In this document: positions 49,396 through 58,551 of the stretch, piece after piece | How positions within the stretch are numbered: position 1 is the first letter of the stretch | Layout: each line of letters starts with the position of its first letter | From: an uncultured Opitutia bacterium | GTDB taxonomy: Bacteria > Verrucomicrobiota > Verrucomicrobiia > Opitutales > CAJWYM01 | DNA: 64,000 nucleotides | Assembly (NCBI GenBank): GCA_913049555.1 | Contig: CAJWYM010000003.1 | Coordinates: 5,797 to 69,796 of the forward strand | Direction: 5' to 3' | The notes under the pieces: model-generated | The model's database searches: none | Told to the model about the DNA's origin: nothing | What the model saw: only the letters and a program-made list of their open reading frames with translations | Made by a program: the position numbers and the translations under genes

Positions 49396-50895
49396 TTATT
49401 CTTGTAGCCAGTTCGTGTCTCGAATGATGGTTTGCCAATTTTTCCTATAATAGGAGAGTTCTCCAAAAAAAGCGATTTCATCTCCCTCTTTGTAATTCTC
49501 TCGAATTTTGTTTCTTAGATTTAAATCCTCAGTCCATAAGTGAAATGGTATTTCATCCACTTGGATTTGCAAAGGAGTAAGGCTCGTTAAGGTGGAATGA
49601 AAGTAGAAAATTTGTTGCAGATGATCCTCGTTTCGAATTGCGCGTGCCTGAACTCCAGATTTGACAAGGGGGGCATCTCTCAAAAGTCTAGAAAAAGGAA
49701 CTCGACTGGGTGCGTTGGCACCAAATTTAGGATCCCCTTTTTGATCTGTTTCTATGAACTCCTCAATGAATTGAAAATCAGGTTTGAGGATGGTAAATCT
49801 GGCGACAAGTGGAAAATGTGCACTCAATCCGTAGCCATTCGGAGAGTTGATCCATCTTTTGGGTCGCTGTGATTTTTCCGAAGAATTGAGGCTATCTATT
49901 TTCAAAACTTGAAAGGAGTTGTCTCGGTACTGGATTCCTTGTTTGTTGTATACATTCCTAGTTAAAAGCAAGTTCATATTAGAAGACAAGGATCCGTTTG
50001 TACTTTCACTGGATCGGGCACTGGCATCCAATTCGTACCATAAATTATAATACTTGGTTTTGTTCCCAATCAATTGAGCCTCTGTGCTTTGTTCCCCCAA
50101 TATATTTTTAAAAGCTGTTTTTTTCCAGCTTGGGAAACGCAATGATTGATCATGACTCGTACTGAAATTTCCCCCGATGAGAATGTCCATGGCCGGCGTT
50201 TCCTCAAGAATTTTGTCGACTCGGTCGTTGAGAACTTTAGCGGCAGAGATGCGAACTCTTTCCCCTTTATAATGATTTCCTGATTGCCATTGATTGTTGA
50301 GAATAGTTAATGGAATTTCATCGATATTTACGAGAACCTCTTGTATGGGAGCACTTCTTATTACCTTGTGAGACTTTTGATAGACAATCGGGTATTTGGA
50401 AAAAACCGCAGTGTTGGTATAAACATTGTTTGTTGGCGGATTAAAATCAGAATTCCCTAGAGCTATCTGATATTCGCCCAAGCCTTGATCTGCAAGCATC
50501 TTTAGTAGAAAAGCTTCTGCAGGAATCCCGATTACTTGGTAATCAAGAGGTTCTTTAAGCATTTCTTCAACAGTCGTATTTTGGAAACGATTCAGGAATA
50601 AATCATAATCCTCTATGCTGCTCTCTGGAGTTCTGTCATTTTCGATGCCTTGAAGTAGGAGGATGTCAGGCCCTCTGCCGGAACGAACTAATTGAAGAAG
50701 CTTTGCGGTATTGTTCAGCCTTTTAAAAAGGTGTGCCGGTTTATAATAGCCCCTATGGTAATCTGCATGCATCGCGGAACCATCCACGTCAAAAAGATTC
50801 TCTAAGTTCAGGACCATAATCGTCAATCCCTTGGCCTGCAATTGCAGCGAAAATTGAAATAAAATAAGCAGAAGAAGAATTCTTCTTAATTTCAT
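49396..50895 (-). CDS. Secreted endonuclease/exonuclease/phosphatase (EEP) family protein
   Basis: The ATG at 50895 gives a signal peptide, MKLRRILLLLILFQFSLQLQA. The mature N-terminus LTIMVLNLENLFD is the classic EEP first motif, with ILLLQGIEN and IGGNFS later. Confidence 0.6.
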   Translation of the reverse strand: MKLRRILLLLILFQFSLQLQAKGLTIMVLNLENLFDVDGSAMHADYHRGYYKPAHLFKRLNNTAKLLQLVRSGRGPDILLLQGIENDRTPESSIEDYDLFLNRFQNTTVEEMLKEPLDYQVIGIPAEAFLLKMLADQGLGEYQIALGNSDFNPPTNNVYTNTAVFSKYPIVYQKSHKVIRSAPIQEVLVNIDEIPLTILNNQWQSGNHYKGERVRISAAKVLNDRVDKILEETPAMDILIGGNFSTSHDQSLRFPSWKKTAFKNILGEQSTEAQLIGNKTKYYNLWYELDASARSSESTNGSLSSNMNLLLTRNVYNKQGIQYRDNSFQVLKIDSLNSSEKSQRPKRWINSPNGYGLSAHFPLVARFTILKPDFQFIEEFIETDQKGDPKFGANAPSRVPFSRLLRDAPLVKSGVQARAIRNEDHLQQIFYFHSTLTSLTPLQIQVDEIPFHLWTEDLNLRNKIRENYKEGDEIAFFGELSYYRKNWQTIIRDTNWLQE

Positions 50896-50920
50896 AGTAA
50901 CAAGATATTTAATCGTTTTT

Positions 50921-51547
50921 TTAGGTTTCTTTGGCCAATTCATCCAAAGTAATTGCATTGGATTTTCCAAATTTTGGCTTAAATTCTGGAAGAGGATTTT
51001 CTTCTGGGGCGGTTTCCACCTCTTCAATGAGGTCTGTTGAAGGAAGCTTTTCATTGGGATCCTCTTTTTCCAAGCTTATGTCCTCATCGGAAGCTAATTT
51101 AGGATGGGAGTCTAAAGAATCTTCCTCAGCAGAGGAAACATCTAAGGAAGAATCATCGGGTAAGGAATTCTCTATCGAGGAATCATCGGGTAAGGATGTC
51201 ACGGATTCATTTTCTTGGAATTTATCTTCAGAGACTTCTTTTTCCTTAGCTAGAAGCTCAATTTTTTTTATTCTAGAGAGCAATGTATCAATCTCTTTTT
51301 GTTGCAATTCAATCGTTTCCTGATCCTTGTTGGATATGTTTGGATCTATCTCTTTTGAACCAACCACCAAAGTTGGAGCCGAATGAGTTTCTTTTTCAGC
51401 CTTTTGATCCTCAAGATCTTTCTTCAAAAGAGCTTCGAACTCATCTAAAGCCTCCGATAAAATCTTAACAACAATCTCAGACAATTTAGGATCGTCTTTA
51501 ATGATGGGGTTTGAAACCGTAAATTTAGCAATGATTTCTTGTTTCAT
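50921..51547 (-). CDS. Highly acidic hypothetical protein with a short tandem repeat
   Basis: 208 aa, very rich in Asp/Glu/Ser, with no signal peptide. It has the tandem SLPDDSSIEN/SLPDDSSLDV, mirrored by a DNA repeat gaatcatcgggtaagga around 51140-51200. Confidence 0.5.
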   Translation of the reverse strand: MKQEIIAKFTVSNPIIKDDPKLSEIVVKILSEALDEFEALLKKDLEDQKAEKETHSAPTLVVGSKEIDPNISNKDQETIELQQKEIDTLLSRIKKIELLAKEKEVSEDKFQENESVTSLPDDSSIENSLPDDSSLDVSSAEEDSLDSHPKLASDEDISLEKEDPNEKLPSTDLIEEVETAPEENPLPEFKPKFGKSNAITLDELAKET

Positions 51548-51761
51548 GATTGATTTTAGTTTTCTGGGATTAGCAAGGCATGTATCAATTGGAGTAGTCT
51601 TATTATCGGATCATTGTGGATGATTGGCAAGTATCTAAAACTTAATTTTGGTCCATAAGATCCCACGGAAAGCAATCCTATTAGGATAAAAACATTTTGA
51701 ATTTTCAAATTTGTTTGTAGGCCTACAACAATCAGAACTTTAGTGAGTAGATTTATTAACT

Positions 51762-52724
51762 GTTGCGGATTGACCGCAGGTTCTGAATTACTAAGATATA
51801 AATTGAGTATTGCAGAAATTACCAGTTGTTGCGGATTGACCGCAGGTTCTGAATTACTAAGATGATTCCCAATGGATGGTTTGTAGAAGGCATGTTGCGG
51901 ATTGACCGCAGGTTCTGAATTACTAAGATTTGTTGGAGTGCAGGGAAAGAGTGGGAGGTGTTGCGGATTGACCGCAGGTTCTGAATTACTAAGATCAAGC
52001 GTTTCGTTTTCCAATTTCTATTTGGGTTGCGGATTGACCGCAGGTTCTGAATTACTAAGATTTTGCTGAAAAAAACTCACGAACATTATTAGTTGCGGAT
52101 TGACCGCAGGTTCTGAATTACTAAGATAAGTCGTCTGCGTCTACATTGCTAAACCAGGTTGCGGATTGACCGCAGGTTCTGAATTACTAAGATTTGGAAT
52201 GAATTGGTGGAATAAACACGTTAGGTTGCGGATTGACCGCAGGTTCTGAATTACTAAGATTTCTGGACGAAAAAGGTTGCATCATAGGTTTAGTTGCGGA
52301 TTGACCGCAGGTTCTGAATTACTAAGATTAACATTATAGATCAGTTTAGCACTCTTGAGTTGCGGATTGACCGCAGGTTCTGAATTACTAAGATTGAACA
52401 ACTTGAAGACATTTATGTTCAATAGTTGCGGATTGACCGCAGGTTCTGAATTACTAAGATAATAGGAAATCAGCCGATTAGAAGAGTTCTGTTGCGGATT
52501 GACCGCAGGTTCTGAATTACTAAGATTTGCCGAGAACTAGAGAGACAGATAACACTGTTGCGGATTGACCGCAGGTTCTGAATTACTAAGATTAAATAAG
52601 CACATCGTTCAGCACTTTGATCGTTGCGGATTGACCGCAGGTTCTGAATTACTAAGATAATTGAGAAACACAGCCTTTGTAATTTGTAGTTGCGGATTGA
52701 CCGCAGGTTCTGAATTACTAAGAT
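51762..52724 (+). CRISPR. CRISPR array: 15 identical 36-bp repeats (GTTGCGGATTGACCGCAGGTTCTGAATTACTAAGAT) and 14 spacers (twelve of 30 bp, one of 31 bp, one of 32 bp)
   Basis: Repeats start at 51762, 51828, 51894, 51960, 52026, 52092, 52158, 52225, 52293, 52359, 52425, 52491, 52557, 52623 and 52689. The plus-strand orientation is inferred from complementarity to the plus-strand tracrRNA, the GTTG...AT repeat ends typical of type II-C, and the repeat-internal promoter. Confidence 0.97.
51770..51797 (+). promoter_or_regulatory. Repeat-embedded sigma70-like promoter (representative copy; the same element is present in all 15 repeats)
   Basis: Repeat positions 9-14 are TTGACC (-35). A 16-bp spacer follows. 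Repeat positions 31-36 are TAAGAT (-10), which is the last 6 nt of the repeat. Confidence 0.55.
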
Positions 52725-52728
52725 ATAC

Positions 52729-52777
52729 TTCCTGTAAATTGTTATTTTTTAATAGTTTACAGGAATTATTATTTTTT
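52729..52777 (+). terminator. Intrinsic terminator-like hairpin at the cas2-proximal end of the array
   Basis: ttcctgtaaa-(17-nt loop)-tttacaggaa forms a 10-bp stem, followed by ttattatttttt on the plus strand. Confidence 0.5.
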
Positions 52778-52794
52778 AAATTTGCACATTTTTC

Positions 52795-53127
52795 TCAAAA
52801 AAGCATGAGTTGTACCGGTTTTTTCTCAGTTTTCTGAAGCTTTCGATTGCAAATAAATACGCTTTCAGCGAATTGACGATCTGTAAAAAAAAGGATTGTT
52901 ACATCTCCTGAGTCTGGAACATGAGTTTTTATACGCTGAACATAGGGTTTTAACTTATCTCGTTCTCCTATAAATCGGAGATAAACGGAGTATTGTGACA
53001 TCTCGAAACCTTCATCCAAAAGAAAATTTCTAAATCCAGAGGCACTTTTTCTCTCATTATCAGTTATTACAGGAAGATCGAACATGACCATAATCCACAT
53101 AAGTCGGTATCCATTCAAGGGGTTCAT
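52795..53127 (-). CDS. cas2: CRISPR-associated endoribonuclease Cas2 (type II)
   Basis: 110 aa. YRLMWIMVMFDLPV...FRNFLLDEGFEMSQYSVYLRF is the typical type II Cas2 N-terminus. There is a 4-nt overlap with cas1. Confidence 0.9.
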   Translation of the reverse strand: MNPLNGYRLMWIMVMFDLPVITDNERKSASGFRNFLLDEGFEMSQYSVYLRFIGERDKLKPYVQRIKTHVPDSGDVTILFFTDRQFAESVFICNRKLQKTEKKPVQLMLF

Positions 53128-54062
53128 AGAGTATTCTTTAAAAACTCTTTCATAGCAGAGATAGAGGGTAAAGAAGGTTTTGAAAGTTGTTTTTTGTGAC
53201 CTGAAGCAATACCCGCTAGATCTCGAGTTATTTGCATTATGTGACTAAATAAATCTAAAGAGTTCTTGTCTTCTTCCCTTTTCCATTTGAAATGAAGAAG
53301 GGAAACAATACGAGTTTTCATGTTATTATCTAGGATGAGTTCCTCATAAGGATCTTTAATCCAAATAGAATATACAATGGCATCAATTAAGGGACGAAAC
53401 GGCTCCATCAAGTCATCGGCCAATCGAAATACATTGACACTTTGTTTGTGATGAAGTGCAAAAGATGGATGTAAGCCGGCAGCATAAATTGCTCTAATCG
53501 TGGATGCTCGAATTATCGTATAGCCATAATTTAGACAAGAATTAATACCTGGTTCATTTCTATCCCGAGTAAAATCTCTTCCCATCAATATTTTCCAATA
53601 TCTAGATGCCCCTGCTGACTCTCTATTATCTAAATCTCCAGATTTTACTTTTTTTGCCATGAGTAAAAGTGGCTTATGATTCAAACCAAACAACTCTAAC
53701 ACTTTAGCTTGATTCATCAATTTAGCCTGGATGATGGCTTTCCAAGCCTGTTTCTTTTTGGGTATGGGCATCAATGCTTGTTTCTCATGAACGCCTGATT
53801 GTTGATAATGAGATTGCGTAGGTGTTAAAATTGCTTCTGGCAAAAATGAAGAATTGCATAGTATCAATGGTATTTTGTGGGTTGCCAGTTTACATAAGAG
53901 TGAGTGAGAAAAAGAAGTTCCGCGTGCAAGGACAATAACGGCATGAATTAAATCGAAAGGGATTCGTTTTTTAACCTCTTTGCCAGTTTTTAGTACCAGA
54001 CAACCTCGACTAGCACTTAGGAAAAAACCATATTCGCTCAATTCAAGAACAGATCCATTCAT
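53124..54062 (-). CDS. cas1: CRISPR-associated endonuclease Cas1 (type II)
   Basis: 312 aa with LNYGYTIIRASTIRAIYAAGLHPSFALHH...FRLADDLMEPFRPLID (Cas1 catalytic region). There is a 4-nt overlap with cas9. Confidence 0.92.
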   Translation of the reverse strand: MNGSVLELSEYGFFLSASRGCLVLKTGKEVKKRIPFDLIHAVIVLARGTSFSHSLLCKLATHKIPLILCNSSFLPEAILTPTQSHYQQSGVHEKQALMPIPKKKQAWKAIIQAKLMNQAKVLELFGLNHKPLLLMAKKVKSGDLDNRESAGASRYWKILMGRDFTRDRNEPGINSCLNYGYTIIRASTIRAIYAAGLHPSFALHHKQSVNVFRLADDLMEPFRPLIDAIVYSIWIKDPYEELILDNNMKTRIVSLLHFKWKREEDKNSLDLFSHIMQITRDLAGIASGHKKQLSKPSLPSISAMKEFLKNTL

Positions 54063-57000
54063 GAAATTTTTACTTTAACGGCTCTAGATTGGACTTTTCC
54101 TAAAATATCAACAGATGCTTTTTTGGCTTTATATTGTTGAAGTTTTGATGCAGGCAATGCCAAAGTTAATTCGTCGCCTTTCTCTCTAGCTATTTGATGT
54201 GCTCGAAAATAAACTCTTCCATCTTGTCTCATTTTCTTTACTTTATATAAATCACTCACTCCATTAATTTCCAACTCTACCATATCGCTTATTTGCAATG
54301 TCATTATTTTTCTGGCAGTAGGATACTCTTTCTTCCAATTAGGTGTAAAACCTCTTTGATGTGCGTCAAAGTTGGATATAATTTCAGATCGCCACTTACC
54401 TTTCTTCTCACCAAAGAGGGGGACATAAATATCTGCACAAAAGTTTCCTCCAGTGGCAACATATTTAAAATGCTCCTTTCCAGCTTGATCTTTGTGCGTG
54501 ATTTTACGCATAGTTCTAATGTCCTTCTCGCGATGGATCCGAACTCTTCTAATACCTGTTTTCACAGTATATTCTGAAAGAAAGGTTTGCCATTCCTTAT
54601 CACTAGTAATAACTCGGTTAGCATCCATGAGTGATTTTTGCACTCTTTGGTCGGCAATTTCTTTTATGTTTTTTTCAGCTTTTTTTATACTTTGTAGTTC
54701 AACCCGATTTGCAACTATTACTTTGTCCTTTTTACCTTGGCTAATAAGCCCGTAATTGGTCTCTTCGTGTAAGGGTGAAATGGATATTTGTGAATTATTT
54801 CTGTCATTTTTCCTTCCAATCTTTAAGCCATGGTCTGGTTTGTATGACACGACAATTCTTTGAGCACTATCTTTAAGTTTATCGGGATTAAAGTGATCCC
54901 AAGGGGAGGGCATGTTGGCAAAAATTTCATCTGGTTTACCCAATTCCATCTCACGCACTTTTTGTGCTGTACTAGATAACTTTTGGAGGAAACGGGTTGT
55001 GGTGCAGGCAACTGTAAACGCATCGATTGCATGATGGCGATTGTCATCCCTATTTTTTACACCATCTGAGAGAATATGATTCAATCCCCAAGAACGACGA
55101 AGTATTGCAGTCATTTGTCCAGTAACTACATTTACTTTAGCAACAATGGTATTTAAATATTGATGAGCCACTTTAGAGAGATATCGAGTATCATTAAGCA
55201 AACGAGCAATGCCATCTCCACTTTCAGCAAATCTGTTCATAGCGTCCGCTTCAAACCTCCATCTTTTATTCTTTGGTAGTTGCATGGCATGACTCATTAT
55301 ACTTGCCCATTCATCAGAACCATAAAATGCCTCATAGGGGGTGCGATTTCCTTTTTTTCTATTAGCATGTCTGAAACAGACCGTTTTGTTTGCCATGGAA
55401 TCATCAAAAGTCTGTGAAAATGGCAACAAATGCTCAATTTCGACTTCTGGGCTGAATAACTGGTGGATAGCAATGGGCTCTCTACTAAATGGACAACAGC
55501 GAGCTGCAGGATTTGTGCTTAATTCCTCCCAAAGTTTAAAACACTGCCTATTTTCACGATTCTTTTTAATCCCTAACTTGTCGAGTTCTGAATCAATCTT
55601 TTGATTTTGTAGAGTGTTTTTTCTCTGGAAATCTTTATACTGTTTCTTTTGTTTTTCAGTTCTCTTCAAATCTCTTGCTAATTCAATAACGATACAGTCT
55701 GGTTTTCCATATTTATTTATTATGGCATTAATTATTTTACGCAGTTGATTGAGTCCAAGATGAACAGTAGGGTTATTTATTTTACCCCAATACTTTTCAG
55801 GTTCTTTTTCTCGATCATACTTAGACCGATCTTGTGGAGGAATAACTACATCTTCAAGTACTTCTCCATAATAGGGCAATTCATCGTAAATCATTTCAGG
55901 ATTACGAGCGGAATGGTGATAACCTGCTTTTTGACAGGCTTCATGATAGCGAAATCCAGCTTGTAGATAGGGAAGTATTTTACGAATTGCTAGCAAACTT
56001 AATTTAGCATGTCCATCCGCAATGCGAATAGATGAAATTTGTTTTGCGTTGTTTTTAGTCATTGAATAATTGTCAATAAAATATTGTAGCAAGGGTTCCT
56101 CCTCAGGCTCATCACGAATGAGTTGAACAATTTCGGTTTGCTTTTTTTCACTCAATTGAAACCACGCTTCTCCAAAACAATTAGAATGTGAAAGTTGTCG
56201 AGCAGTCGTGTCAGCTTTGAGTCCATCCCTTCCAGCACTTTCTAAATTAAATGGACAATCACTCTCAAGATTCAGTATTTTTTTACGGATTGTTTTAAAG
56301 AGTAAGGTGCCTTTAGTATTTACCATGCTTTTTCCCTTTTGCGTGCATAGTAAATGAGACGCTATCAAATTAAGCTCATCTTTAGACAATGACTGCTTTC
56401 CATTCAATGTTTCGAGTTCTAAATTATTAACCTCTTGCCAAACGCGAAACTGTTGAACTAAAGAAATAGATAAGGGTGCTCTTTCACCTGCTTTACCAAC
56501 CGCTTTATATTCAAATGTACATCTACCAACAGGTTGAGGCTTTAAGGGTCGCTGATTGATAATAATGTGATGCACTTTTACCAATAGCTCTGGAGTAAGT
56601 TCGTCATAATGTTTTTTTTGGAAATCCCATATTTTTTCTATCTCAGCTTCATACATGGAGCGATCTGGGTAACCCAAATCCCAAATATTTTTTCCAGATT
56701 TGTTACTTGTAGGGCGGAAACGAGTCCATTCTCCATTTTGATATCTTTCGAACAGAAACTCTCCTAATGTTTTGCCATTTAATGTTTTTTTCAACTTTGA
56801 TATTCCTACCTTCATTCCTGATGACTCATCAAGATCGTTTCTGTCTATTTTTCTATTAGACTTGAAACCACGATGTTTACAAATATGAACAAGAGCTCTA
56901 CCAACTTCAAAAAGACTCAGTTTTTCTCTAACAGCTAAGGCTCTTAATTTGTAAGGGTTTTCATATTTCAGTTCTTGTTGATCCTTCTGATCTACGGGGA

Positions 57001-57259
57001 ACAATCCATGTAAAGTTAGAATTCTTATAAGTTCTCTTTGTCGTGCTAAGGCCCTATCTCTTCTTCTACGACTACATCTTTTCTCCCTTCTTTCTACAGC
57101 AAGAGGTTGATTGCTTTTTGCATCCCTTCCATCAGGAAAAATTCTGACGCCCCAGTCAATTAGCTCACATGGCTCATTGCTGAAATTATTATTTTTTAAT
57201 AAAGCCCAGCCAATGGAACTTTGTCCAAGATCAAGTCCTAGTGTAGTTTTATTTTTCAT
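54059..57259 (-). CDS. cas9: Cas9, type II-C (compact, 1066 aa)
   Basis: RuvC-I LGLDLGQSSIGWALL (Asp10), Arg-rich bridge helix RREKRCSRRRRDRALARQRELIRIL, RuvC-II CIVIELARDL, HNH EIEHLLPFSQTFDDSMANKTVCFRHANRKKGNRTP, and RuvC-III NRHHAIDAFTVA. There is no csn2 or cas4 in the locus. Confidence 0.95.
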   Translation of the reverse strand: MKNKTTLGLDLGQSSIGWALLKNNNFSNEPCELIDWGVRIFPDGRDAKSNQPLAVERREKRCSRRRRDRALARQRELIRILTLHGLFPVDQKDQQELKYENPYKLRALAVREKLSLFEVGRALVHICKHRGFKSNRKIDRNDLDESSGMKVGISKLKKTLNGKTLGEFLFERYQNGEWTRFRPTSNKSGKNIWDLGYPDRSMYEAEIEKIWDFQKKHYDELTPELLVKVHHIIINQRPLKPQPVGRCTFEYKAVGKAGERAPLSISLVQQFRVWQEVNNLELETLNGKQSLSKDELNLIASHLLCTQKGKSMVNTKGTLLFKTIRKKILNLESDCPFNLESAGRDGLKADTTARQLSHSNCFGEAWFQLSEKKQTEIVQLIRDEPEEEPLLQYFIDNYSMTKNNAKQISSIRIADGHAKLSLLAIRKILPYLQAGFRYHEACQKAGYHHSARNPEMIYDELPYYGEVLEDVVIPPQDRSKYDREKEPEKYWGKINNPTVHLGLNQLRKIINAIINKYGKPDCIVIELARDLKRTEKQKKQYKDFQRKNTLQNQKIDSELDKLGIKKNRENRQCFKLWEELSTNPAARCCPFSREPIAIHQLFSPEVEIEHLLPFSQTFDDSMANKTVCFRHANRKKGNRTPYEAFYGSDEWASIMSHAMQLPKNKRWRFEADAMNRFAESGDGIARLLNDTRYLSKVAHQYLNTIVAKVNVVTGQMTAILRRSWGLNHILSDGVKNRDDNRHHAIDAFTVACTTTRFLQKLSSTAQKVREMELGKPDEIFANMPSPWDHFNPDKLKDSAQRIVVSYKPDHGLKIGRKNDRNNSQISISPLHEETNYGLISQGKKDKVIVANRVELQSIKKAEKNIKEIADQRVQKSLMDANRVITSDKEWQTFLSEYTVKTGIRRVRIHREKDIRTMRKITHKDQAGKEHFKYVATGGNFCADIYVPLFGEKKGKWRSEIISNFDAHQRGFTPNWKKEYPTARKIMTLQISDMVELEINGVSDLYKVKKMRQDGRVYFRAHQIAREKGDELTLALPASKLQQYKAKKASVDILGKVQSRAVKVKIS

Positions 57260-57267
57260 TTAGTTAA

Positions 57268-57297
57268 TTGACTTAAGTGAGTACATTTATTTATTAT
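57268..57297 (+). promoter_or_regulatory. Predicted tracrRNA promoter
   Basis: TTGACT (57268-57273), an 18-bp spacer, then TATTAT (57292-57297). The predicted start site (~57303-57305) coincides with the first nucleotides of the anti-repeat. Confidence 0.5.
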
Positions 57298-57302
57298 TTA
57301 TT

Positions 57303-57393
57303 ATCTTAGTAATTCAGAGCCTGCGATCTCTACGTTAACAAGCGAAATTTATCGCAAAAAATTTAATACCAAGCTTCGGCTTGGTATTTTTTT
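57303..57393 (+). ncRNA. Predicted tracrRNA (~90 nt)
   Basis: 57303-57328 (ATCTTAGTAATTCAGAGCCTGCGATC) is complementary to repeat positions 11-36, with 24 Watson-Crick pairs, 1 G-U and 1 mismatch. CGUUAAC (57333-57339) can pair with repeat positions 1-6 across a bulge. There is a small hairpin gcga-aattta-tcgc (57342-57355). The terminal hairpin taccaagc-ttcg-gcttggta (57367-57386) is followed by T7. Confidence 0.75.
57361..57393. terminator. Bidirectional intrinsic terminator shared by the tracrRNA (+) and the WYL regulator gene (-)
   Basis: An 8-bp GC-containing stem with a UUCG loop is flanked by T7 on the plus strand and by AAAAAATTTAA on its left side (a U-rich tail when read on the minus strand). 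The WYL gene stop codon (57392-57394) lies in the T tract. Confidence 0.6.
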
Positions 57394-58201
57394 AGTTCAT
57401 TTCTTCCTCCCCCTTAAGGAAAAGTAAATGGTTGTTATTTGTTTGTCCGACGAAACTGTCTTCTTTAAATTGTAACATTCTCAATGAGTAACCCCTCATC
57501 GCTTTCCGTGTATGGATGTGAAGCAAACCATCTTCCATGCAATAGTCCATTTCTATAGATTGGATTGCGTATGCATCCAACTCAGGATTTGCAATAATAC
57601 TGAGTTCAACCCAACTATTCCACAATACATCAACATATTGAACCGCTGGCTGATTCAATTGAGTAATTTTTGTCATTCTTCCCGGAAGAAAATCTCTAAA
57701 TTCCTTATTTTCGTAACACCACGCCCTTACATGCCAACGAAACCCATCACTACAAATCGAGTGGGGAGCAATTTTACGTCTTTTCAATGTGTTTGAATGC
57801 AGAGAACAATAGGTAATCTCTAAAATATTTTTTGCATGTATTGCTCTTAGATTACTTCTTAATTTTTCAACACTACTAATCCTACTTGGGTGATTGATTT
57901 TATTTTGATGTTCCTGATGATTTAAAAAAGTGTCTAAGGCATCCTCAAAATCGAACAAATCTATGAATATAGGATTAAAGTTCCTCGATGGGATATATCG
58001 CTTCACTTTTAAACAATATTCAATAGAACCCGGATTCAATAACTGGTATTTTTGAATATCTGAGGAAGCTTGTGGTAATGAAATTGAAAACCGCATAGAT
58101 AAATCTGAGCGATTTACTTTTCCAAGCCACCACAAACATTTTTCTATATGCTTCAATCGCTCTTTAGCATCCCATGCTAATGGATTCGTAAAATTTGGCA
58201 T
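57392..58201 (-). CDS. wHTH-WYL-domain transcriptional regulator (BrxR/CapW/PafBC-like architecture)
   Basis: 269 aa. N-terminal winged-HTH-like KVNRSDLSMRFSISLPQASSDIQKY. Central WYL-like core RRKIAPHSICSDGFRWHVRAWCYENKEFRDFLPGRMTKI. The C-terminal extension WVELSIIANPELDAYAIQSIEMDY...RKAMRGYSLRML is WCX-like. Confidence 0.7.
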   Translation of the reverse strand: MPNFTNPLAWDAKERLKHIEKCLWWLGKVNRSDLSMRFSISLPQASSDIQKYQLLNPGSIEYCLKVKRYIPSRNFNPIFIDLFDFEDALDTFLNHQEHQNKINHPSRISSVEKLRSNLRAIHAKNILEITYCSLHSNTLKRRKIAPHSICSDGFRWHVRAWCYENKEFRDFLPGRMTKITQLNQPAVQYVDVLWNSWVELSIIANPELDAYAIQSIEMDYCMEDGLLHIHTRKAMRGYSLRMLQFKEDSFVGQTNNNHLLFLKGEEEMN

Positions 58202-58551
58202 AAATAGATCTTATCAAGTTATGATAAAATTACAAGTAGTTATCTTTTTACTAGGGGTCAAGTAGGGAAAATAAAACCTATAAAATCCTAATTGATATCA
58301 GTCTTATAAAAATTGTTTTTCCAGAAATATTTTGAATTCTTAGAAGGATTTTTCAATGAATTTAAAGAATTTTAACAAAACTAAATTTATGCATCTAATT
58401 TTTATTCAATTCATAAAATACTCCGAAATTTGTTCTTTTTTGTATCATTTTGATTTTAAAAATTCGCGTATCTCTATTTACCCAAACAATTAACCAAGGA
58501 TTTTGTTTGAATCCTAGTTTCTGGAGCTGGTTCTCAAGGATCCAAATGGTA

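Follow-up and report, generated by a model that had tools for sequence, protein, structure and literature searches.

The locus described here raises the question of whether a ligand-sensing protein may control a native Cas9 system. The way in which native Cas9 and Cas12a systems are switched on is poorly understood, the best-known mechanism for Cas9 being RNA-based (tracr-L) and few protein regulators being known. The stretch of DNA analysed (hereafter the window) comprises 64,000 nucleotides of contig CAJWYM010000003.1 of an uncultured Opitutia bacterium (assembly GCA_913049555.1) and carries a type II-C CRISPR-Cas locus whose first gene encodes a protein with a WYL domain. This protein belongs to the BrxR/CapW family of regulators, its gene shares a conserved promoter block with that of its only close homologue, and the homologue itself directly precedes a cas12a gene; we suggest that it may act as a repressor through which the Cas9 system becomes inducible. 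The locus consists of the following elements.

57392-58201, minus strand: WYL gene, BrxR/CapW-family regulator of 269 aa (open reading frame, phmmer, AlphaFold2, Foldseek)
54059-57259, minus strand: cas9, 1066 aa (TIGR01865, 593 bits; HNH_4, RuvC_III)
53124-54062, minus strand: cas1 (PF01867)
52795-53127, minus strand: cas2 (PF09827)
51762-52724, plus strand: CRISPR array in which a 36-nt repeat, GTTGCGGATTGACCGCAGGTTCTGAATTACTAAGAT, occurs 15 times, separated by spacers of 30-32 nt and oriented opposite to the cas genes

As csn2 and cas4 are missing beside cas9, cas1 and cas2, the gene content is that of a type II-C system. The WYL gene comes first, in the same orientation as cas9-cas1-cas2 and with a gap of 132 nt to cas9, and both gene order and gene content bear out the initial annotation, which had described it as the co-oriented leading gene of such a locus.

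Family and architecture of the WYL protein

The 269-aa translation, which includes the stretch quoted in the initial annotation (RRKIAPHSICSDGFRWHVRAWCYENKEFRDFLPGRMTKI), scored 40 bits against the Pfam WYL model (PF13280; cut-off 21.8). This was the only domain reported by our own Pfam scan, and the precomputed Pfam hits give the series WHD_BrxR (PF26109), WYL (PF13280) and BrxR_CTD (PF26107). Two CRISPR-associated WYL models of PADLOC also matched the protein, and an NCBIfam scan gave no match. Among solved structures, phmmer retrieved CapW of S. maltophilia (7tb6, 1e-33), BrxR of Acinetobacter (7t8k, 6e-32), CapW of P. aeruginosa (7tb5, 1e-31), the single-stranded DNA (ssDNA)-bound CapW of R. 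leguminosarum (9c5g, 1e-31) and BrxR of E. fergusonii (7qfz, 1e-29). The alignments with these five CapW/BrxR proteins run end to end, covering residues 7-259 of the 269 (E about 1e-34 to 1e-29), and delimit the parts of the protein as follows.

57989-58183, minus strand: winged helix-turn-helix at the N-terminus (wHTH domain), about residues 7-71, including R15 (7qfz alignment; helices and strands of the model)
57662-57850, minus strand: WYL domain, residues 118-180 (Pfam match)
57725-57739, minus strand: RWHVR motif, residues 155-159 (sequence; motif defined in PMC11662680)
57467-57634, minus strand: C-terminal WCX domain or BrxR_CTD, about residues 190-245 (PF26107; aligned to the C-terminal domains of CapW and BrxR)

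The RWHVR motif is the hallmark of the repressor-type CapW/BrxR group, and in R. leguminosarum CapW the residues S144, R164, R168 and R184 contact ssDNA (PMC11662680). Their equivalents in the 9c5g alignment are S133, R155, R159 and R175, which together with RWHVR are invariant across an alignment of 36 homologues. Nearly invariant in the same alignment is R15, the equivalent (7qfz alignment) of R17 of E. fergusonii BrxR, a residue that BrxR needs in order to bind DNA (PMC9122601). An AlphaFold2 model built on the 36-homologue alignment reached a predicted local distance difference test score (pLDDT) of 86.9 and a predicted template modelling score (pTM) of 0.81, and when it was compared with the PDB by Foldseek the best 15 matches were all BrxR/CapW chains (E about 1e-20). 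The global template modelling (TM) score against these chains is only about 0.5, with a root-mean-square deviation of about 15-16 Å, and the placement of domains in the monomer model might differ from that in the crystal structures. As the full-length alignments, the RWHVR and ligand-binding residues and the fold all agree, membership in the BrxR/CapW family is established, which confirms the wHTH-WYL-WCX assignment made initially and settles the fold check proposed with it.

Two other roles were weighed against these comparisons. An activator of the DriD/PafBC type, switching the locus on upon binding ssDNA, would share the wHTH-WYL-WCX architecture, and Foldseek matched PafBC and DriD at 1e-8 to 1e-6; the repressors are far closer (1e-20), the protein has the RWHVR motif characteristic of repressors, and phmmer found no DriD/PafBC match at E <= 10, and we regard an activator as very improbable. 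Still less credence can be given to an accessory factor acting at the protein level on Cas9 or on nucleic acids in the manner of WYL1 on Cas13d. WYL domains do bind nucleic acids, and modulation of Cas13d by WYL1 is cited in PMC9122601, but it is the DNA-binding repressors that this protein matches over its full length, including the wHTH domain and the DNA-binding arginine, and the fold of WYL1 (6oaw) matches only marginally (E 4e-3, TM 0.25).

Genomic linkage of the regulator

Among 5.8 billion protein clusters the only close homologue was P0002, at 63% identity, and a profile search of the same clusters revealed no third clade member above 40% identity. P0002 is encoded on a 2.6-kb contig (L001, 1-2609, Logan DRR337529), 33 nt before a Cas12a gene and with no terminator intervening in that gap. 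The product of the latter gene begins MNKSIWDTFTNQYSLSKTLRFELKP, contains the REC1 domain of Cas12a and gives matches of 1e-27 to 1e-39 to solved structures of Cas12a; L001 shows its N-terminal 415 aa and ends before any cas1/cas2 or array could show. Pairing with a class 2 effector was seen twice, both times in members of one small clade, and is otherwise rare in the family.

The remaining relatives are no more than 38% identical and stand at the head of, or next to, other systems, namely type I restriction-modification (R-M) with further defence genes, a Prok-E2/ThiF/JAB cluster with GmrSD and, where the regulator is divergent from ydjM, UvrD with an exonuclease or genes of integrative and conjugative elements (ICE). 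Immediately downstream of P0003 and P0006 no defence gene was recognised. The representative genomes hold at least 598 family loci, and in the best 80 of them, which were kept, there was no tblastn match to the Cas9, Cas1 or Cas2 of the window or to the Cas12a fragment within 10 kb. The direct downstream genes in 45 of these best 80 loci include those for BrxA, GajA-like ATPases, ResIII helicases, DUF3375, a Cap17-like protein, TerB and methyltransferases. The best family relatives came mostly from metagenome-assembled genomes of Verrucomicrobiota. A representative-genome search with the single protein gave no close relative, a metagenome scan with the two-member alignment gave a sole relative at 36% identity on a 1.1-kb contig, and a scan of viral contigs gave nothing. 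The initial annotation had staked its reading on the linkage of orthologues to cas genes; such linkage is found in the 63% homologue, there with Cas12a, and not in the relatives at 38% or below or beside the readable Cas9 orthologues (see below).

The next-closest proteins to the pair, P0195 and P0194 (L097-L102; 37-38% identity, 265-266 aa), are without exception encoded divergently from a YdjM-family gene, and these pairs lie in integrase/TrwC (ICE-like) or Gabija-like/UvrD/RNase_T islands. At another locus (L006, 6889-17734) the gene of a BrxR homologue and the hsdR of a type I R-M system overlap by 4 nt at the start of hsdR, and after this system come DUF5655, DUF4917 and an AAA_15/AAA_21 ATPase, forming a multi-system island with one leader.

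Candidate operators and promoter of the WYL gene

The region upstream of the WYL gene holds the following elements.

58224-58253, minus strand: TAGTAAAAAGATAACTACTTGTAATTTTAT, a conserved promoter/operator block that begins 52 nt ahead of the ATG, 25/30 identical to L001 469-498
58236-58253, minus strand: imperfect inverted repeat TAGTAA-N5-TAACTA(C), candidate operator, -52 to -35 from the ATG, inside the conserved block
58207-58231, no strand assigned: palindrome TTATCA-N5-TGATAA with its core at 58211-58227, second candidate operator, 10-bp arms with 8/10 matching
58215-58264, plus strand: CAAGT(A/T) in three copies (58215, 58233 and 58259), reading WACTTG in the direction of the gene; the conserved block takes in the middle copy

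The upstream regions of the window and of L001 are collinear over their last 52 nt, with the conserved block at equal distance from the ATG in both, and its score was reached by none of the shuffles (0/200). The inverted repeat within it is perfect in the Cas12a-linked L001, where it reads AGTAGTAA-N5-TTACTACT. As the wHTH domains of the WYL protein of the window (P0001) and of P0002 are nearly identical, the shared inverted repeat is the better operator candidate, and the comparison of the two loci points to TAGTAA-N5-TWACTAC as the most likely operator. The BrxR R-boxes have arms of 10-11 bp and a spacer of 5 bp (PMC9122601), and both candidate operators have this same 5-bp spacer; with its arms extended to 10 bp, the palindrome TTATCA-N5-TGATAA agrees with the R-boxes in arm length too.

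TTATCA-N5-TGATAA, initially put forward as a possible operator, is indeed present, as a single copy in the window at -26 to -10 from the ATG. Perfect 6+6 palindromes with a 5-bp spacer number 25 over the 64 kb, or about 0.04 per 100 bp, which makes this one only mildly unusual, and it is not conserved in L001, the locus of the only close homologue; it is probably not the main operator. The CAAGT(A/T) motifs, for which the same possible function had been suggested, are likewise all present, and a cluster of this kind occurs nowhere else in the window (expectation about 0.03 per shuffled 64 kb); only the middle motif falls inside the conserved inverted-repeat block.

A promoter scan of the intergenic sequence on the minus strand returned no site of 9/12 or better for the WYL gene or for cas9. 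The WYL promoters picked out by eye, TTGAC(C/A)-N16/17-TACTTG and TATCAT/TATAAT at -25, were not convincing, nor was TTGTAA-N16-TAAGAT (in L001 TTGAAA-N16-CATATT), which would give a near-leaderless mRNA.

The interval between the WYL gene and cas9

In the initial annotation the WYL gene and cas9 were separated only by the locus of the trans-activating CRISPR RNA (tracrRNA). The tracrRNA is there, but it lies on the opposite strand, so that it converges on the WYL gene, and its terminator hairpin (57365-57388) lies 3 nt from the WYL stop codon. The interval contains the following elements.

57304-57395, plus strand: tracrRNA, antisense to the WYL gene and cas9, with anti-repeat (about 57305-57341), second hairpin and terminator (repeat complementarity, fold)
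57268-57297, plus strand: promoter-like site of the tracrRNA, TTGACT-18-TATTAT, 10/12, with its -35 element 9 nt from the cas9 ATG
57365-57388, no strand assigned: 10-bp hairpin, on the plus strand followed by T7 and a strong intrinsic terminator of the tracrRNA; weaker context on the minus strand

The anti-repeat is complementary to positions 11-36 (the 3' part) of the repeat at 24/26 positions, and the fold of the tracrRNA has a z of -3.3. The Rfam scan of the window matched no family and no tracrRNA model. The whole module is kept upstream of the cas9 orthologues of two other loci, L009 (5835-5982) and L010 (135-282); both tracrRNA hairpins show compensatory changes across the three loci, and the TTGAC of the -35 element is kept in place in L009 and L010, lying 9-12 nt from the cas9 start codon over all three. 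As the tracrRNA is transcribed divergently from a promoter beside the cas9 ATG, a cas9 mRNA starting upstream would run antisense to the tracrRNA over its full length. In the minus direction the hairpin precedes AAATTTTTT, with no T-run abutting the stem, which makes for a weaker terminator context than on the plus strand.

This arrangement brings up a route through the tracrRNA, in which induced antisense transcription from the WYL gene would alter tracrRNA and CRISPR RNA (crRNA) levels by interference or pairing, instead of or besides raising cas9 mRNA. The convergence of the WYL gene and the tracrRNA would suit it, as would the mere 9 nt between the tracrRNA -35 element and the cas9 ATG; but the antisense overlap of cas9 leader and tracrRNA also exists in loci devoid of the WYL gene, and the Cas12a locus of P0002 needs no tracrRNA. 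We consider such a route improbable.

The 3' end of the CRISPR repeat, ...ATTACTAAGAT, is a -10-like TAAGAT (e.g. 52711-52724, plus strand), and the same -10-like sequence is found on the cas9 strand within the anti-repeat (57305-57318, minus strand). Judging from its sequence, the TAAGAT of the anti-repeat could serve as a cas9 promoter independent of the WYL gene. The type II-C arrays of Neisseria have repeat-internal promoters, which the TAAGAT at the repeat end recalls.

Proposed mechanism and its weighing

For the family, repression, ssDNA-triggered release and a leading place in defence operons have been described (PMC9122601, PMC9122589, PMC11662680, PMC13622015). We hold it somewhat probable that the same applies here, with a BrxR/CapW repressor that is released by ssDNA and partial read-through of its transcript together rendering the type II-C system inducible. 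On the model of the characterised family members, a dimer would bind an inverted repeat in its own promoter, the likely site being TAGTAA-N5-TWACTAC and a possible second one TTATCA-N5-TGATAA, and the bound repressor would keep transcription low. Derepression triggered by ssDNA is to be expected here because RWHVR and the ssDNA-contact residues match those of CapW. The signal would be ssDNA building up from DNA damage, phage replication or the degradation of cleaved DNA, which would enter the WYL pocket formed by S133, R155, R159 and R175, whereupon the wHTH domains would separate and the promoter would open. Part of the WYL transcription would then pass the hairpin, which appears poorly placed for termination in the minus direction, and continue into cas9-cas1-cas2. 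Read-through is proposed because the 3 nt between the WYL stop codon and the hairpin leave no room for a separate cas9 promoter upstream of it. Co-transcription of the WYL gene and cas9 is what we infer. Control of cas9 by the WYL protein is plausible, and the convergent tracrRNA terminator weakens the case for it.

Several observations, taken together, weigh against this mechanism. A stable hairpin (in a region of -18 kcal/mol) and a convergent tracrRNA gene stand between the WYL gene and cas9. The copy of the inverted repeat in the window is degenerate, with 5/6 per arm, the WYL gene lacks a convincing sigma-70 -35/-10 pair, and there is no second copy of either candidate operator near cas9 or near the promoter of the tracrRNA. 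P0001 and P0002 were the only members of the clade to be found. A WYL gene is missing upstream of two Cas9 orthologues (51% and 43% identity), whose neighbours there are RmuC (divergent) and SecB, respectively. A third orthologue, at 52% identity (L010), has only 279 nt of upstream DNA, ending in a reading frame that is not BrxR-like; this frame was considered as a truncated WYL gene and rejected, its C-terminus being unrelated to BrxR. The cas9 loci of the 51% and 52% orthologues retain the same antisense tracrRNA. The pairing with a WYL gene is not inherited with this Cas9 lineage, and as cas9 loci devoid of the WYL gene keep the same tracrRNA, the lineage can use a cas9 promoter of its own, possibly inside the tracrRNA region.

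Some of these points favour a regulator that is autoregulated and merely a neighbour of the cas genes. The hairpin immediately past the WYL stop codon would insulate the two, cas9-cas1-cas2 would be transcribed from a promoter inside the antisense tracrRNA region, and the WYL gene would either survive from a former defence island, as a remnant or a hitch-hiking module, or regulate something elsewhere. The retention of the tracrRNA module by orthologues without a WYL gene and the lack of an operator copy near cas9 agree with such insulation, as does the high mobility of the family, which fronts many unrelated systems. On the other hand, no further defence gene lies nearby: the flanks are housekeeping (a BamE-like lipoprotein, DeoC, KdtA and SpeA on one side; an EEP-family protein, ABC1 kinase and FAD oxidase on the other), and CRISPR-Cas genes are therefore the sole defence genes adjoining the WYL gene. 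Furthermore, the position of P0002 directly before a CRISPR effector gene, at 33 nt, is hard to explain as chance occurring twice, and the hairpin has no U-tract abutting it on the minus strand. We judge the neighbour-only arrangement unlikely, though it deserves serious attention, and continue to prefer the inducible repressor.

Comparison with known regulators

BrxR of Acinetobacter sp. NEB394 (7T8K/7T8L) and of E. fergusonii pEFER (7QFZ) shares with the present protein its three-domain architecture, fold and 28-30% full-length identity, as well as the DNA-binding arginine (R17 in BrxR, R15 here). Like brxR, the WYL gene is the first co-oriented gene of a defence locus, with an inverted repeat, here a candidate, that has a 5-bp spacer and lies between promoter and start codon. 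The two differ in that the partner of BrxR is a bacteriophage exclusion (BREX) system or type IV restriction and here it is a type II-C Cas9, in that the arms of the candidate operator are 6-8 bp and degenerate as against 10-11 bp, in that a convergent small-RNA gene and terminator here separate the regulator from the first defence gene, and in length (291-295 aa for BrxR, 269 aa here).

CapW, the repressor of cyclic oligonucleotide-based anti-phage signalling systems (CBASS) in S. maltophilia (7TB6), P. aeruginosa (7TB5) and R. leguminosarum (9C5G), is the best sequence match (1e-33) and has equivalents of the RWHVR and ssDNA-contact residues. Unlike the gene described here, which is co-oriented with the genes it heads, capW is usually divergent from the CBASS operon. 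CBASS, moreover, acts by abortive infection, which gives a clear toxicity reason for repression, whereas the cost of Cas9 would be autoimmunity or spacer uptake.

Links between WYL proteins and CRISPR-Cas have been recorded before. BrxR-family homologues adjoin many defence systems, CRISPR-Cas accounting for 21/210 associated systems (Picton et al. 2022, PMC9122601), and these pairs resemble the present one in that a WYL repressor heads a CRISPR-Cas locus. In the part of the PMC9122601 tables available to us, Cas9, Cas2_IIC and Cpf1 are query markers and none of them is among the results, and the examples shown there carry class 1 or adaptation-module markers, e.g. Cas8c_IC, with Cas1_IIB and Cas4_VB2 as cross-hits. 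The CapW paper mentions CapW/BrxR-like factors associated with CRISPR-Cas, and a 2026 daWYL preprint reports 13,508 defence-associated WYL proteins, CRISPR-Cas pairings included. Sll7009, the repressor of a type I-D system in Synechocystis, and WYL1, the accessory protein of Cas13d, are WYL proteins functionally linked to CRISPR-Cas as well, but belong to other WYL families, Sll7009 having no significant similarity to BrxR (PMC9122601). The initial annotation knew of no characterised WYL regulator of a Cas9 system, and a full-text literature search found none, nor any for a Cas12a system.

As regards Cas9 itself, Workman and colleagues are reported to have described in 2021 how RNA-guided Cas9 represses its own type II-A cas9 by means of tracr-L (cited in PMC13622015). 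The two would be alike in purpose, Cas9 being kept low until needed, and unlike in mechanism, the regulator here being a putative ligand-sensing protein repressor.

Other features of the window

Identical copies of the locus occur on contigs from TARA Oceans and other marine metagenomes. The 350 intergenic nt that precede the WYL gene (58202-58551) have a GC content of 25%, compared with 38% for the whole window, and that of the WYL-cas9 stretch is 32-37%, slightly lower than in the flanks (39-43%), which is compatible with horizontal acquisition of this stretch. A tRNA search of the window found none. The open reading frames listed within 51556-52069 and 52661-52837 are translations of the CRISPR array and not genes, e.g. 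one of 152 aa with the repeated peptide LSNSEPAVNPQ. Beyond the far end of the array, at 49396-51547 (minus strand), a 552-aa protein is encoded in which an endonuclease/exonuclease/phosphatase domain scores weakly (28.8 bits), and the open reading frame of 208 aa that overlaps its gene is very acidic, rich in Ser, Asp and Glu, and without a family match.

Implications for class 2 CRISPR immunity

The regulator is a member of a known family with an unusual partner, and not a new kind of system. That WYL repressors stand at the head of defence systems, CRISPR-Cas included, is already established, and what is gained is an extension and not a new principle; the Cas9 partner is new, and the novelty implied at first is narrower to the extent that BrxR-family regulators heading CRISPR-Cas loci had been published (PMC9122601).

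A wider, and in our view rather doubtful, reading is that P0001 and P0002 represent a portable cassette of repressor and promoter/operator, placed before two unrelated class 2 effectors and rendering them inducible by ssDNA with a priming-like positive feedback. If true, interference and, through cas1-cas2, spacer uptake would be induced by ssDNA, and since this inducer would itself be a product of degrading the DNA that these nucleases cut, a positive feedback would result. Type II and type V systems are commonly held to lack priming.

The locus offers a concrete instance in which signal-dependent control of class 2 CRISPR immunity can readily be tested, with Cas9 here and Cas12a in the closest relative, and may yield a compact switch, inducible by ssDNA or DNA damage, for the expression of Cas9 and Cas12a.

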